DNA from: a virus
Lineage: Duplodnaviria; Caudoviricetes
Direction: 5' to 3' (one strand)
DNA: 64,000 bases
IMG/VR virus record: IMGVR_UViG_3300033067_002106
Location: 18,836-82,835 of that record
This document shows positions 17,887 through 63,966 of this stretch, in pieces. Under the pieces are notes generated by a model. The model was not told where the DNA came from. It worked only from the letters and a program-made list of their open reading frames with translations, and ran no database searches. How positions within the stretch are numbered: position 1 is the stretch's first letter; each line of letters begins with the position of its first letter. The position numbers and the translations under genes were made by a program.

Positions 17887-17970
17887 CGTGGGATGGTGTA
17901 ACGGCAACATGCTAGGCTCATAACCTAGAGACATCAAATGCAAGTGTAGGTTCGAGTCCTACTCCCGCAA
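17887..17970 (+). tRNA. tRNA-fMet(CAT) with long variable region
   Basis: C1:A72 mismatch; ctCATaa; 17-nt variable region. Confidence 0.85.
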
Positions 17971-18016
17971 CAAAGCAAAGGCCCTTAGGGGCCGTTTGCA
18001 TTTAAAAAAGAAATAT

Positions 18017-19662: not shown

Positions 19663-19734
19663 GGCTCGGTGGTGTAACGACAACATTTAGGACTCTAAAT
19701 CCGAAAGATAAGGGTTTGAATCCCTTTCGAGTCT
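19663..19734 (+). tRNA. Amber suppressor tRNA (CTA), copy 1
   Basis: Cloverleaf; loop ctCTAaa; D-loop GG replaced by GA; one anticodon-stem mismatch. Confidence 0.8.
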
Positions 19735-19741
19735 CAAAACC

Positions 19742-22136: not shown

Positions 22137-22207
22137 GTGGGTGTAGCTTAAAGGTAAAGCGATGGTCTCTAAAACCATTGTTGACAGTTCGATTCTGTTC
22201 ATCCATA
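22137..22207 (+). tRNA. Amber suppressor tRNA (CTA), copy 2
   Basis: Full cloverleaf; atggt-ctCTAaa-accat. Confidence 0.88.
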
Positions 22208-22239
22208 CAGATACTGTGGGTTCGAATCCCGTATATCCA
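22208..22239 (+). pseudogene. tRNA 3'-half remnant
   Basis: gtggg-ttcgaat-cccgt T arm without a 5' half. Confidence 0.6.
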
Positions 22240-29875: not shown

Positions 29876-29966
29876 GGTGTGTGTGGTCCGAGTGGTCGAA
29901 GGAATCTGCCTGTGAAGCAGAATGAGATTATATCAAACGTCGTGGGTTCAAATCCCATCATGCACC
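29876..29966 (+). tRNA. tRNA-His(GTG) with 20-nt variable region
   Basis: G-1:C73; ctGTGaa. Confidence 0.75.
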
Positions 29967-30011
29967 CTTTAAGATGGTTGTGAGTATACTGTAATCAGAA
30001 ACTCTCAAATC

Positions 30012-30096: not shown

Positions 30097-30179
30097 CCTG
30101 ACGAGGCAGACTGGTTGATGCACCACCCTGATAAGGTGGGTTCGCAAGAACAAGGTGGGTTCGATTCTCACCGTCAGGA
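30097..30179 (+). tRNA. tRNA-Ile(GAT) with variable arm
   Basis: ctGATaa; gttc-gcaa-gaac arm. Confidence 0.8.
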
Positions 30180-30181
30180 CA

Positions 30182-30803: not shown

Positions 30804-30888
30804 GGATGGGTTGCTTTAGAGGCCGAAAAGTCTAGATTGTTAATCTAGTGTCGCAAGACCACCGTGGGTTCGACTCCCACCCCATCCT
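30804..30888 (+). tRNA. tRNA-Asn(GTT) with variable arm
   Basis: ttGTTaa; gtc-gcaa-gac arm; U73. Confidence 0.7.
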
Positions 30889-30895
30889 CAAATAT

Positions 30896-33618: not shown

Positions 33619-33694
33619 GGTTCCATAAGCTAACTGGATAAACTGGCCGCCTTCTAAGCGGCACTTATGGGTTCGAATCCCGTTGGAACTACCA
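33619..33694 (+). tRNA. tRNA-Arg(TCT)
   Basis: Cloverleaf with encoded CCA. Confidence 0.9.
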
Positions 33695-36371: not shown

Positions 36372-37304
36372 ATGAAGAACTATATTAGAAAACTATTAAA
36401 AGAGAATCTGATGGTAAATGCATTGGGTATTAAGGTTTCACGTCCAAACCAAGTATTGGTTATTATGAGGGGTATATCCGGTAGCGGTAAGTCCACAAAG
36501 GCTAAATCCATTGTGGGTGAAGGTGTTATACACTCAACAGATGCTTTGATTGAAGCAACTGGTGATTACAATGGTTTTTTTGCTGAGATGAACAAAACAA
36601 AAAACTTCATTGGGTTAAGCCGTATGCACTCAAAGAACTTAGCCAACGCAAAGAAATCAATGAATGAGGGTGTTTCACCTGTTGTTATTGATAACACAAA
36701 TTTGAAGGCAAATGAAGCTAAGGCTTATGTTAAATATGCTTTGGAATTGGGTTATGCTGATGACAATATCAAGATTATTGATGTTGGTACTGGTGGTTTA
36801 ACAGCTGAAGGGTTGGCTGCAAGAAACCAACATGGTGTTCCATTGGAAAAAATAGAACAAATGGTTAAGTCACATAAGAGTGTCGGACCACTCACACTTA
36901 AAAGGATATTGGAGTCCAAGGATATGTATCCAAACTCTGATATCCTTTATTCAGCGGTTGTTTTGGATGAAAAATCAAGAAGCAAACTACTTGCAGCGTA
37001 TGGTAAAAATATTCCTTCCGGTTGGGATGTAATTGCTCATCACATGACAATTGCTTTTGGCAAACCAGTAAAGAATGAAGAAGACTTGGGCAAAACCGTA
37101 TGTCTTAGAGTTACAAAGGTTGGCGCTAGCGATATGGCATATGCTGTTCAGGTTGAAGGATATCCATCAAACAACGCTATTCCACATATTACCTTGGCCA
37201 TCAATCCAGATGGTGGAAAAGCGATGATGTCTAACGACATAACTAATTGGATGTCAACGAAGGGTATTGAAGTTTGTGGTGTTGTGACAAATATCAAGAA
37301 ATAA
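36372..37304 (+). CDS. Polynucleotide kinase (AAA_33) plus 2H cyclic phosphodiesterase fusion
   Basis: GISGSGKST; DNTN; HMT and HIT 2H motifs. Confidence 0.75.
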   Translation: MKNYIRKLLKENLMVNALGIKVSRPNQVLVIMRGISGSGKSTKAKSIVGEGVIHSTDALIEATGDYNGFFAEMNKTKNFIGLSRMHSKNLANAKKSMNEGVSPVVIDNTNLKANEAKAYVKYALELGYADDNIKIIDVGTGGLTAEGLAARNQHGVPLEKIEQMVKSHKSVGPLTLKRILESKDMYPNSDILYSAVVLDEKSRSKLLAAYGKNIPSGWDVIAHHMTIAFGKPVKNEEDLGKTVCLRVTKVGASDMAYAVQVEGYPSNNAIPHITLAINPDGGKAMMSNDITNWMSTKGIEVCGVVTNIKK

Positions 37305-37350: not shown

Positions 37351-37719
37351 ATGAATAATGAAGCAAGAAGAATCGATTTAAGTACCAAACTTCGTCAGAT
37401 GGGGGACTCCCTAATGAACGAATCCAATGTTTCTGGTGATGAAAATCTCTTGATAACTGGAAATCTTATGGGCTTTATAAGTACTCTTATCCTTTTTGAT
37501 GAGGATATAAGAAGTTTTAGTTTATTAAGTGAAATGTTTTCAGCAAAAAGGGTTTTGGATTCAATGTTACATGGGATTCCTGATAATATATCTCCGGCAG
37601 TAGCTGCGCATATACAAGAATCTGCTGATAAACTTGAAGAAAAACTTGGTGTTAAAAAGAAAAGAGCCCCTAGGAAAAAAAAGAATGACAATTCTAAGGG
37701 TGAAGAACCAACACCTTAA
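37351..37719 (+). CDS. Hypothetical protein
   Basis: 122-aa ORF after promoter. Confidence 0.7.
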   Translation: MNNEARRIDLSTKLRQMGDSLMNESNVSGDENLLITGNLMGFISTLILFDEDIRSFSLLSEMFSAKRVLDSMLHGIPDNISPAVAAHIQESADKLEEKLGVKKKRAPRKKKNDNSKGEEPTP

Positions 37720-37745
37720 AATTTTTGTGGTTTAAAACCACAAAT

Positions 37746-37774
37746 GCATCAGTAGCTCAGTTGGATAGAGCACA
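37746..37774 (+). pseudogene. tRNA 5'-half remnant
   Basis: gcatcag-ta-gctc-agttggata-gagc; pairs with remnant at 38321-27. Confidence 0.75.
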
Positions 37775-37807
37775 TAATTAGTTCTTTGATATATTGGAAA
37801 GATTTAG

Positions 37808-37881
37808 GGTCTTGTAGCATAATTGGATAATTCAACTGCCTTCTAAGCAGTAGACTACAGGTTCGAATCCTGTCGGGACTA
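37808..37881 (+). tRNA. tRNA-Arg(TCT), cassette-borne
   Basis: actgc-ctTCTaa-gcagt; weak D stem. Confidence 0.8.
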
Positions 37882-38238
37882 CATTAAATGATGTCTAATT
37901 CTGTGGCAATTTGAGCACAGTAAAACACATTTATCTAACTCTTTTGTAATTTGATTCCACGGTCTTAAACGTAATCTATTCCAGTCAAAATCTTTCTCGG
38001 ATGGAGTAATATGATGAAAATCAAATATTACATAAGGCATTTCTGGGTAAGTTACCTGACAATCTACGCATGAACAACCCTTATATTCAATAGCTTTAAT
38101 TTTTTGGTTAATCCATCGTTGAATACAATATTTATTGTGACATTTCTTACATTTTGAAGCACCACTTTTTCTATCTTTTTGATGATAAAACTCAGATATT
38201 GATTTAGTTAAATTACAAACAGTACATATTTTCTCCAT
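37879..38238 (-). mobile_element. HNH homing endonuclease
   Basis: CTVC...CKKC; CVDC; FDFHH; KCVLLCSNCHR. Confidence 0.8.
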
Positions 38239-38287
38239 ATTAATAAATATATGGAAAGAAGCCAAAAATCTATCCAATATATTAAAA

Positions 38288-38331
38288 TTCTAAGTTTGGG
38301 GTCATAGGTTCGAATCCTATCTGGTGTACCA
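38288..38331 (+). pseudogene. tRNA-Arg(TCT) 3'-half remnant with CCA
   Basis: tTCTaa-gtttg-gggtc-atagg-ttcgaat-cctat-ctggtgt-acca. Confidence 0.75.
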
Positions 38332-38341
38332 AACCTATTTT

Positions 38342-38584
38342 ATGAAAACATTCATCGAATGGTTGGTAGATAAAACCAACGAAGATGACCTACCGTTTGA
38401 CATGTCAAAAGATGATGTTATAACTTGGGTTAAGAACATTCAAGAGATACTTATCTCTGATGAAAAGAAGCCTTATATGGGACGGCATTACGGTGATTGT
38501 ACGAAACAAAATATTCCTTGCCAACTTTGTTTATATTTGAATTGGTTGGTAGACTATAAAGAATATTGTATATCGATTATATAA
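38342..38584 (+). CDS. Hypothetical protein
   Basis: 80-aa ORF; HxGDC...CxxC. Confidence 0.65.
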   Translation: MKTFIEWLVDKTNEDDLPFDMSKDDVITWVKNIQEILISDEKKPYMGRHYGDCTKQNIPCQLCLYLNWLVDYKEYCISII

Positions 38585-38596
38585 ATAATTAAACAC

Positions 38597-38932
38597 ATGT
38601 TGGACCCACGAACATTTGGCGGCTCAAGAGCGGCTGAAGTTTTGGTTGAAAGATTGAAAGCTCACGACTCAAAAATGATTAATAAGGTTGGTCATATTTG
38701 GGTTTCTTATAGTCAAACTTTTAACGAAATAAAAAAGTTAGACAGCAGGATTTCAATCGGGTTAGCCAAATTGGTATATCATAATGCAATAGGAAAGGCT
38801 GATACCTTTCCTGATGATATTAAAACTTATTTTAAAAACATAATCAGTGCTCGTTATAGGGTTTTTCTAATTGAAAGGGACGCACACAAACCTTATAAAC
38901 ATAGGGCGGATTATCCGGCAAAACAAAAATAA
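38597..38932 (+). CDS. Hypothetical protein
   Basis: 111-aa ORF. Confidence 0.65.
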   Translation: MLDPRTFGGSRAAEVLVERLKAHDSKMINKVGHIWVSYSQTFNEIKKLDSRISIGLAKLVYHNAIGKADTFPDDIKTYFKNIISARYRVFLIERDAHKPYKHRADYPAKQK

Positions 38933-38933
38933 C

Positions 38934-40040
38934 ATGTTAGCAATAATCAGATACATAAAGACACATGGCCTAGCTAAGGCTATTGAAACTTTCAAACTCA
39001 AGACTAGAGTCTATGAGAAGAAAATTCTATTGAACTATGACCAAATAGAATCCAATATGTCCTTCGAGGAAGTTCAAGACTGTCGTGGTCTTATTCTTGA
39101 AAGAGATACATGGAAGGTTATGTCCATGTCATTCAGAAAGTTCTTCAACCATGGTGAAGGAAATGCTGCAACAATTGATTGGAATACCGCACGTGTACTT
39201 GAAAAGGTAGACGGAACGATGATTCAACTTTATTGGGATTGGCATAAGAACGAATGGTTTGCGGCAACAACTGGTATGGCTGAGGCAGAGGGAGAGGTCA
39301 ATAATATCGAGAAAACTACTTTTAGTTTATTGTTTTGGAACACAGTTAAACTAGACAAAAATAAGTTGGATAAAGATTTAACCTATGTCTTCGAGCTATG
39401 CACACCAGAAAATATTGTTGTAACACCACACACTGAATATAAGGCTATTTTATTAGCGGTTAGAAATAAAATTTCACTAAAGGAAATGTCATATTCAGAA
39501 CTTGAATCCGTTAGTCAAGTATTGTCAATTCCATTGGTCAAGTCAATCGAGATGACATTTACTTCTGTTGAGGATATAAAGAAGACATTTGAAAATATGC
39601 CATTTAGCGAAGAAGGTTATATCATTATTGATGCTAATTTTAATCGTATCAAGATTAAGAATCCAGCATATGTTGCCGCACATATATTAAAAGGAAAGTC
39701 TGGATTTCATCACATCATGGATATTATTAAAACAAATGAAGTTGAGGAATATGTCGCAACATTTCCAAACAGAAAGGATGAAATCTTGAAACTTAAAGTA
39801 AATTACGACAACTTAATAAATCGGTTAACCAATTTGTGGAGTATACTGATAAAAGAAACACCTAAGAATGATGGTAAAACACAAAAAGGTTACGCTGAAT
39901 CAGTATTTAAACTTACAAGTGAGCATGGGCTAAAATGTTTTTCGGGTTTGTTCTTTAATTTGGCAAACGATAAAGTATCAAACATTGATGAGTTTGTCTC
40001 TAACTTTGATAATAAGATTCTATATGAACTACTTCGGTAG
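38934..40040 (+). CDS. RNA ligase (T4 Rnl1-like)
   Basis: CRGLIL; KFFN; EKVDGT; FEL; EEGYII; KIKN. Confidence 0.8.
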   Translation: MLAIIRYIKTHGLAKAIETFKLKTRVYEKKILLNYDQIESNMSFEEVQDCRGLILERDTWKVMSMSFRKFFNHGEGNAATIDWNTARVLEKVDGTMIQLYWDWHKNEWFAATTGMAEAEGEVNNIEKTTFSLLFWNTVKLDKNKLDKDLTYVFELCTPENIVVTPHTEYKAILLAVRNKISLKEMSYSELESVSQVLSIPLVKSIEMTFTSVEDIKKTFENMPFSEEGYIIIDANFNRIKIKNPAYVAAHILKGKSGFHHIMDIIKTNEVEEYVATFPNRKDEILKLKVNYDNLINRLTNLWSILIKETPKNDGKTQKGYAESVFKLTSEHGLKCFSGLFFNLANDKVSNIDEFVSNFDNKILYELLR

Positions 40041-58243: not shown

Positions 58244-58327
58244 GTCTACGTGGTCGAGTGGTCGATGGCAGCGGTCTGCAAAACCGCAAGGGAAACCTCA
58301 TCGTTGGTTCAAATCCAACCGTAGATT
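58244..58327 (+). tRNA. tRNA-Cys(GCA) with long variable region
   Basis: ctGCAaa; U73. Confidence 0.8.
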
Positions 58328-58333
58328 CAAGAC

Positions 58334-59380: not shown

Positions 59381-59465
59381 GGGAACATAGCTCAGTGGTC
59401 AAGAGCACTGCCCTTACAAGGCAGCGGCGAATAGTATAACGGGTGTTCGATTCACCCTGTTCCCA
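59381..59465 (+). tRNA. tRNA-Val(TAC) with long variable region
   Basis: ctgcc-ctTACaa-ggcag. Confidence 0.82.
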
Positions 59466-59473
59466 CAATAAGT

Positions 59474-63829: not shown

Positions 63830-63917
63830 GGATATGGCGCATAGCGGTTGTTGCACCACCCTGTCACGGTGGTAAGTAGGTAAAACGAAAAAGCGGGTTC
63901 GATTCCCGTCATATCCG
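63830..63917 (+). tRNA. tRNA-Asp(GTC) with 20-nt variable region
   Basis: ccacc-ctGTCac-ggtgg; G73. Confidence 0.78.
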
Positions 63918-63966
63918 CCCTTGACTTTTTTGTACCTAGCACATATTTATATAGAAATGTATAGAT

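Follow-up and report, generated by a model that had tools for sequence, protein, structure and literature searches.

A homing-type HNH nuclease cassette that appears to break a phage tRNA-Arg gene and to carry its replacement

Results

A tRNA-Arg(UCU) gene in two pieces

In the window, the 64,000-nucleotide stretch of DNA that was analysed here, a tRNA-Arg(UCU) gene lies in two pieces, between which are found a second, intact tRNA-Arg(UCU) gene (referred to as the cargo tRNA) and a gene for an HNH endonuclease. We consider it probable, at about 75%, that the locus contains a nuclease cassette of the homing type, by which a tRNA-Arg gene is broken and its replacement brought along. The source is an 82.8-kb IMG/VR virus record with an estimated completeness of 23%. 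Since the window encodes 31 tRNA genes and one tmRNA, its origin must be a very large uncultured phage. Genes for two RNA repair enzymes lie on either side of the locus, and within the interval between them small uncharacterised ORFs flank it on both sides. The features of the region are as follows (other contigs are denoted by L numbers).

36372-37304, polynucleotide kinase fused to a 2H phosphodiesterase (fungal-Trl1-like), on one side of the split tRNA-Arg locus
37724-37744, plus strand, palindrome TTTGTGGTTT A AAACCACAAA (10+10, perfect), immediately upstream of the 5' tRNA piece
37746-37774, plus strand, resident tRNA-Arg(UCU) gene (the target), 5' piece, with acceptor 5' strand, D arm and A26, followed by CA
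37777-37807, plus strand, left cassette end, with the motif ATTAGTTC...ATATTGG... common to L064, L063/L069 and L070
37808-37881, plus strand, cargo tRNA-Arg(UCU), intact, without encoded CCA
37879-38238 including the stop codon, minus strand, HNH endonuclease gene, 119 aa (coding 38238-37882)
38249-38286, plus strand, right cassette end, just upstream of the HNH start, with a local hairpin and the right arm of a long helix
38287-38331, plus strand, 3' piece of the target tRNA-Arg(UCU) gene: anticodon loop through A73, plus encoded CCA
38934-40040, Rnl1-like RNA ligase, on the other side of the split tRNA-Arg locus

The 5' piece comprises, at 37746-37772, the acceptor 5' strand GCATCAG, U8/A9, the D arm GCTC-AGTTGGATA-GAGC and A26; the two extra bases CA that extend it to 37774 could be tRNA positions 27-28. 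The 3' piece consists, in this order, of the loop ATTCTAA, GTTTG (the 3' strand of the anticodon stem), the variable loop GGGTC, the T arm ATAGG-TTCGAAT-CCTAT, the acceptor strand CTGGTGT, A73 and CCA. Every position of the two acceptor strands, GCATCAG and CTGGTGT, forms a pair (7/7), and two of these pairs are G-U. A first-pass annotation made from the sequence had pointed to two tRNA-Arg halves with complementary acceptor strands, and both are present at or near the places where it had put them. The UCU loop and the terminal CCA that it ascribed to the 3' half are also there, but this half does not start at the anticodon: the piece begins at 38287, with the loop ATTCTAA.

Taken alone with the DNA upstream of it, the 3' piece scored only 14.5 bits against the Rfam tRNA model (RF00005; cut-off 29). 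A search for the window's halves matched three viral contigs with an uninterrupted tRNA that has the same acceptor halves. The intact tRNA-Arg(UCU) of L138/L139 is identical to the 5' piece at 27/27 bases and to the 3' piece, from GGTC to A73, at 29/29; its difference from the window pieces is confined to the anticodon stem, and the genomic contexts of the intact copies differ from that of the window. This identity indicates that the two pieces are the ends of one real tRNA-Arg(UCU) gene and not a chance resemblance. The claim that they are halves of one gene thus held, but they do not add up to the whole of it, as the 5' strand of the anticodon stem is essentially missing. Rejoining them in any way yields at best a CAAAA/GUUUG stem with an A-G mismatch, so no simple ligation would restore a normal tRNA. 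The pieces are undecayed and, because they are also identical to intact genes elsewhere, they are best read as the result of a recent capture.

The cargo tRNA and the HNH gene

The cargo tRNA bears out the statement that an intact and different tRNA-Arg(UCU) lies between the halves: 37808-37881 scored 60.3 bits against the Rfam tRNA model (cut-off 29). It has one mismatch, C11-U24, in the D stem. The start of the HNH gene was placed at 38238 on the minus strand, the alternatives 38277 and 38241 having been discarded. The ORF is antisense to the tRNA genes and convergent with the cargo tRNA, and the reported overlap of its stop codon with that tRNA is exact, TAG being the complement of 37879-37881, the last two acceptor bases and the discriminator.

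The HNH protein matches PHROG 2255, 'HNH endonuclease', with E=7e-29; its match to Pfam HNH_2 remains below the cut-off (14.3 vs 21 bits), GIY-YIG gave no match in the protein, and a sequence search of solved structures returned nothing useful. Among 26 distinct homologous HNH proteins, DFHH...CSNCH and two CxxC pairs are invariant or nearly so, and the retention of these metal-binding and catalytic Cys/His residues indicates that the gene is under purifying selection. Judging from this conservation, the enzyme is probably active. The gene ends in TAG, and the window encodes two tRNAs with the anticodon CUA (19663-19735 and 22137-22208); read-through of the stop codon would append 27 residues, encoded antisense to the cargo tRNA.

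The same cassette occurs in other phages

The HNH protein was searched against viral and metagenome contigs, and a locus was regarded as evaluable when sequence was available past the 3' end of the HNH gene. A convergent tRNA-Arg(UCU) was found 0-37 nt from that end in 32/32 evaluable loci with an HNH protein at least 58% identical, while the tRNA arrays and genes around this two-gene module vary from locus to locus. The cassette thus occurs in dozens of other uncultured phages. In many loci the order is that of the window: the cargo has a 5' tRNA piece upstream of it, and a 3' piece follows past the start of the HNH gene. At least nine distinct loci have flanking tRNA-Arg pieces with 7/7 acceptor pairing, each with a sequence of its own. 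Examples of the acceptor halves are:

Window, GCATCAG/CTGGTGT, 7/7
L027, GGTTCCG/CGGAATC, 7/7
L030, GGTCCCG/CGGGATC, 7/7
L063 (L063/L069), ACACTCG/CGGGTGT, 7/7
L070, GCGCCCA/TGGGCGT, 7/7
L036, GGTTCCG/CGGGACT, 7/7
L034 (L034/L071), GGCTCCA/TGGGGTC, 7/7

Matching halves whose sequence is specific to each locus imply that each pair comes from one interrupted gene. In a second architecture, with HNH proteins 53-55% identical (L079, L078 and L077), the order is 5' piece, HNH gene, cargo tRNA and 3' piece, and here too the halves match. The L079 locus lies at about 1480-2010 of its contig, and all three loci were read in flipped orientation. Neither ARAGORN nor Rfam recognised the cargo of L078 as a tRNA, and on visual inspection this cargo seems to be without a normal D arm.

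The junctions vary between subfamilies, the 5' pieces breaking at positions 21-28 and the 3' pieces starting at about 28-49, which suggests that some insertions are imprecise and that they are not always the precise event of classical homing. The state of the pieces varies as well. The 5' piece of L064 has lost G19, and the acceptor strands there no longer pair; in L033 and L036 the 3' piece is reduced to the T arm and the acceptor strand; L029 and L081 are without a 3' piece, L073 and L083 without a 5' piece; and the anticodon loop of L030 is mutated. In L031/L068 and L033, the cargo and the HNH gene stand beside whole tRNAs, without a 5' piece. The cargo tRNA-Arg next to the HNH gene of L037, one of the 32 loci (about 2460-2560, flipped orientation), is 96 nt long and carries, inside the anticodon loop (CTTC-insert-TCTAA), a 23-nt insert with a small hairpin, which could be a mini-intron or an insertion that spoils a nuclease site.

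Taken together, these comparisons support a mobile cassette that would break a tRNA-Arg gene and bring in a tRNA-Arg with the same anticodon. The core of the first-pass annotation, a cassette that breaks a tRNA-Arg gene and supplies another, is thus strengthened by the module being conserved in 32 of the 32 loci and by the paired halves in nine or more.

Sites without the cassette

Cassette-free alleles were sought in other contigs and found: unbroken genes in L148 (L027 subfamily) and in the L138/L139 contigs, and a site without the cassette in L002. Behind one homologous upstream gene (72% amino-acid identity), L148 has an unbroken tRNA-Arg(UCU), L027 a split gene and L083 the cargo tRNA directly after the flank. 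L002 is syntenic with the window (ligase 88% identical) and has neither the HNH gene nor the cassette at the site; L064/L025, with the same synteny, have the cassette, with an HNH protein 86% identical. At 8361-8441 of L002, the closest cassette-free syntenic relative, we found a single odd 81-nt tRNA-Arg-like gene (Rfam, 46 bits). At position 26/27 it has the additional bases TGGAACCA, which are complementary to the acceptor 5' strand of the same tRNA and are located exactly where the window carries the cassette. They are possibly the scar of a fold-back repair. This tRNA is not an intact copy of the window's target, and the empty-site evidence from L002 is less clean than that for L027.

A fold-back similar to that of the L002 tRNA is seen in the 5' piece of L026/L027. 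At 6001-7839 of L002, the kinase-phosphodiesterase gene is itself split: an antisense ORF of 207 aa, which has the motif DxDH...N...N and is without a match in Pfam, separates a kinase ORF of 187 aa from a phosphodiesterase ORF of 137 aa. Behind the ligase gene there is an ORF of 229 aa that resembles the antisense one. The arrangement has the look of a further gene in pieces made by an endonuclease.

Instead of an inserting cassette, the locus might hold debris from recombination among neighbouring tRNA-Arg genes, arising for example by break-induced segmental duplication as for SegB, with the HNH gene as a resident neighbour. Rearrangements driven by SegB in tRNA arrays are documented (PMC13096335), and the loci with whole tRNAs and no 5' piece (L031/L068 and L033), as well as the junctions that differ among subfamilies, would fit such an origin. 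However, perfectly complementary acceptor strands in nine or more distinct loci point to one gene each and not to two neighbours, no tandem repeat unit surrounds the window's cassette, and cassette presence and absence alternate at one site in L148, L027 and L083. We therefore regard this explanation as improbable and retain that of a cassette inserting into a tRNA-Arg gene.

Target, immunity and a proposed mechanism

The D stem TAGCTCA is carried by 11/12 of the 5' pieces, in most of them followed by TGGATAG(AGC). In contrast, 22 of the 23 distinct cargo tRNAs are without TGGATAGAGC, the D-arm string typical of the targets, and most have a different D stem. The other tRNA-Arg(UCU) of the window, at 33619, also has a different D arm. 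From these differences we infer that the HNH enzyme may be specific for the unbroken tRNA-Arg gene and that the cargo tRNA may resist cutting.

These observations can be combined into the following model. A free-standing HNH homing endonuclease gene and its own tRNA-Arg(UCU) would move together as a tight unit. During mixed infection, the nuclease would cut tRNA-Arg genes that have the common D arm TAGCTCAG-TGGATAGAGC, the cut falling between the D arm and the anticodon loop, and the donor phage's cassette would presumably be copied in as the break is repaired. Short homology on either side is probably provided by the tRNA gene's own conserved D-arm and T-arm sequences, so that the cassette could enter unrelated phages. 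Of the resident gene, a 5' and a 3' piece would remain, from which no working tRNA can be put together again, and arginine decoding would be kept up by the cargo tRNA, whose D arm is unlike the presumed recognition sequence. Because breakage destroys the cut site, the carrier genome would be immune.

Cassette ends and a long-range helix

The two ends of the cassette can pair with each other. Nucleotides 37785-37805 form with 38266-38286 a 21-bp helix with one mismatch and one G-U pair, inside a 38-nt inverted repeat that is 76% complementary and whose score was reached by 0/200 shuffles. The helix is kept in four subfamily members (less firmly paired in L064), and two positions covary when the window type is compared with the L063/L070 type. 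The right arm also contributes one half of a local hairpin, in which GGAAAGA (38253-38259) pairs with TCTATCC (38269-38275). Located upstream of the HNH start, this hairpin is conserved, with covariation from one subfamily to another (GGATAGATTT/AAATCTATCC in L035, GGTTAGTC/GACTAACC in L031). The reverse complement of the right arm reads TTGGATAGA, which is the D-loop string of the target tRNA.

Possible roles of the helix are those of a nuclease operator, of an element for mRNA end-pairing or processing, or of a scar left by fold-back repair. Undecayed pieces and a helix with two covarying positions could also reflect a use at the RNA level. The inverted repeat was considered as a transposon end and rejected, as there is no transposase and the repeat is present in one subfamily only.

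The hairpin and its resemblance to the target D loop also bear on the view that the module has been domesticated, i.e. that the HNH gene is immobile and serves the phage otherwise, by cutting tRNA-Arg genes of competitor phages or of the host, or by amplifying tRNA genes under defence pressure, the terminal helix being a regulatory or processing element. The purifying selection on the HNH gene and the conserved hairpin with its D-loop look-alike speak for this view, and a beneficial role of this sort is known for SegB (PMC13096335). Yet continuing mobility is suggested by the many genomic contexts, by the variety of the pieces and by the empty sites. Domestication, which would be compatible with the homing cassette and not exclusive of it, is in our view highly improbable as the explanation of the locus.

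No indication of an intron, and little of splicing

No group I or group II intron matched within 37500-38600 in Rfam at E<=10, and RF00028 had no match in 20 loci of more distant HNH homologues. ARAGORN in intron mode called no intron-containing tRNA, only the cargo tRNA. An ARAGORN scan of all join points was uninformative, since the acceptor, D and T arms are good enough for a tRNA to be called at almost any join. A group I intron in the tRNA anticodon loop was therefore rejected: there is no ribozyme, the exons are incomplete and the ORF is antisense. That the element is intron-less, as proposed at the outset, agrees with these searches and with the position of the HNH ORF, which lies antisense and outside any self-splicing intron or intein.

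When 37746-38331 (586 nt) is folded to minimum energy, the broken tRNA retains its acceptor, D and T arms. The place of the anticodon arm is taken by 2 bp followed by a 3x3 loop, a 4-bp helix sequestering the anticodon, a second 3x3 loop and the 21-bp helix. With symmetric 3x3 internal loops and only 2 bp of anticodon stem, this is not a bulge-helix-bulge.

The fold raises the question of whether the pieces might still be used, the whole insert being a tRNA intron spliced by proteins, with a tRNA and a nuclease gene on board. The 21-bp helix would hold the ends together, the insert would be removed, e.g. with RNase P/Z cutting at the cargo and, at the helix, a double-strand RNase, and the flanking kinase-phosphodiesterase and Rnl1-like ligase would rejoin the pieces. 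Such a scheme gains from the retained arms with the long helix in place of the anticodon arm, from an inverted repeat that beats 200 of 200 shuffles and has covarying positions, from the healing and sealing enzyme genes flanking the locus and from pieces that are undecayed, with CCA encoded. It is opposed by the absence of the 5' anticodon-stem strand in 4/4 subfamily members, which precludes a normal anticodon arm by ligation, and by internal loops that are two 3x3 loops around a 4-bp helix. Furthermore, no group I intron was detected, the pieces of L064, L033, L036, L029 and L073 are truncated or non-complementary, so that the halves are not under consistent selection, and the repair genes are present also in the cassette-free relatives L001 and L002. 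With the missing strand, the decayed or truncated pieces of several relatives and no ribozyme, splicing of the pieces is unlikely, and among the alternatives we consider it the least probable.

Setting of the locus

A tRNA-Arg gene is kept between, or just after, the kinase-phosphodiesterase and ligase genes in L002, L064 and L004/L005, which hints that tRNA-Arg is possibly what this repair kit protects. In L002 (8247-8360) and in L064 (upstream of the 5' piece), the resident tRNA is preceded by a conserved stretch of about 110 nt, for which Rfam gave no match. The window has in its place the 21-nt perfect palindrome at 37724-37744, which is absent from both syntenic relatives. A candidate YrlA (Y RNA-like) at 37690-37804 was discarded as weak (22.6 bits vs a cut-off of 69) and due to the tRNA-like 5' piece. 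A scan for sigma-70 promoters gave no more sites than shuffled sequence, and we therefore claim no promoter. Elsewhere in the window, several tRNAs (for Met, His, Ile, Asn, Cys, Val and Asp) have lengths of 84-91 nt and, unusually for the amino acids concerned, long variable regions (17887-17971, 29877-29967, 30097-30180, 30804-30889, 58244-58328, 59381-59466 and 63830-63919).

Discussion

Homing endonucleases survive in essential genes in three ways: within self-splicing introns, within inteins, and by splitting proteins that reassemble. The locus described here, like those related to it, suggests a fourth, in which the gene is broken and a functional copy comes with the intruder; if this is true, the nuclease pays for the invasion of a conserved gene with a spare one. 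The chances that these loci represent a widespread, undescribed class of homing cassettes that cut and replace a tRNA gene, with the D and T arms as portable homology arms and a terminal helix that is functional as a nuclease operator or as an element of RNA processing or stability, seem to us evenly balanced. The mechanism would explain the tRNA fragments and nested tRNAs that confuse the annotation of large-phage genomes, the shuffling of tRNA genes between distant phages, and the unusual D arms of some phage tRNAs, which may reflect escape from the nuclease. The HNH family may also offer natural enzymes with specificity for tRNA genes.

Several known systems share parts of this arrangement. 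SegB of phages T4/T6 is a free-standing GIY-YIG homing endonuclease encoded in the tRNA gene cluster; it cuts inside tRNA genes of SegB-less phages and drives the inheritance, and even the amplification, of neighbouring tRNA genes, and its homologues are statistically linked to tRNA genes (PMC2330249; PMC13096335). The window likewise has a free-standing endonuclease gene inside a phage tRNA array. However, SegB has the GIY-YIG fold, recognises a T-loop motif of many tRNAs and is located between whole tRNA genes without isotype preference, whereas the window's enzyme is of the HNH type, is tied strictly to one isoacceptor, overlaps its cargo and lies inside a broken gene of that same isoacceptor. 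By analogy, the HNH enzyme may work like SegB without being a member of the SegB/GIY-YIG family.

Phage T5 has the free-standing endonucleases F-TflI, -II and -IV in its tRNA cluster (a 2004 study, as cited in PMC2330249). They resemble the window's enzyme as HNH-type nucleases encoded within a phage tRNA cluster. We are aware of no description in which they come with a spare tRNA of the same isoacceptor or in which their target gene is split.

Endonuclease insertions that split genes are represented by mobE in Aeh1 nrdA and by mobA and seg in other genes (PMC2988022). As in mobE/nrdA, a free-standing endonuclease gene has landed in a conserved gene and cut it in two; in nrdA the protein halves reassemble and the gene is functional, whereas in the window the RNA halves look dead and a second, imported copy would supply the function.

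In 2009, Bonocora and Shub reportedly dealt with mobile group I introns that sit in the anticodon loop of tRNA genes, and with collaborative homing. Such introns, and the collaborative homing of an intron with a free-standing endonuclease, are documented (PMC3984707). They share with the window an insertion in the anticodon region with an endonuclease gene, disrupting the nuclease's own target site, but no ribozyme core was found in the window, where the exons are incomplete and the endonuclease is encoded on the other strand. Whereas the group I introns meet the cost of insertion by splicing, here it would be met by gene replacement.

In the split tRNA genes of Nanoarchaeum equitans and the archaeal bulge-helix-bulge introns, the halves are joined by a splicing endonuclease and a ligase. 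The pieces in the window resemble the N. equitans halves in that each has an adjacent complementary sequence able to pair them; the N. equitans halves, however, make a full cloverleaf, whereas the window has an incomplete anticodon stem and no bulge-helix-bulge, and the pieces in its relatives show decay. An endonuclease ORF in the mitochondrial atp6 gene of Allomyces macrogynus is said, by Paquin, Laforest and Lang in 1994, to have brought a foreign gene end that displaced the original. That case, too, has a mobile endonuclease gene with a replacement for the disrupted part and the displaced original left as a remnant, but it concerns a protein gene of a fungal mitochondrion, in which only the 3' end was replaced, by in-frame fusion.

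Our literature searches, which returned SegB, F-Tfl and mobE, found no description of a cassette of a nuclease and a spare tRNA. As far as the sequences allow us to judge, the cassette would differ from the known systems in the strict pairing of the HNH gene with a tRNA of the same isoacceptor as its apparent target, in its insertion inside that target, and in a rescue by replacement, not by splicing or reassembly.
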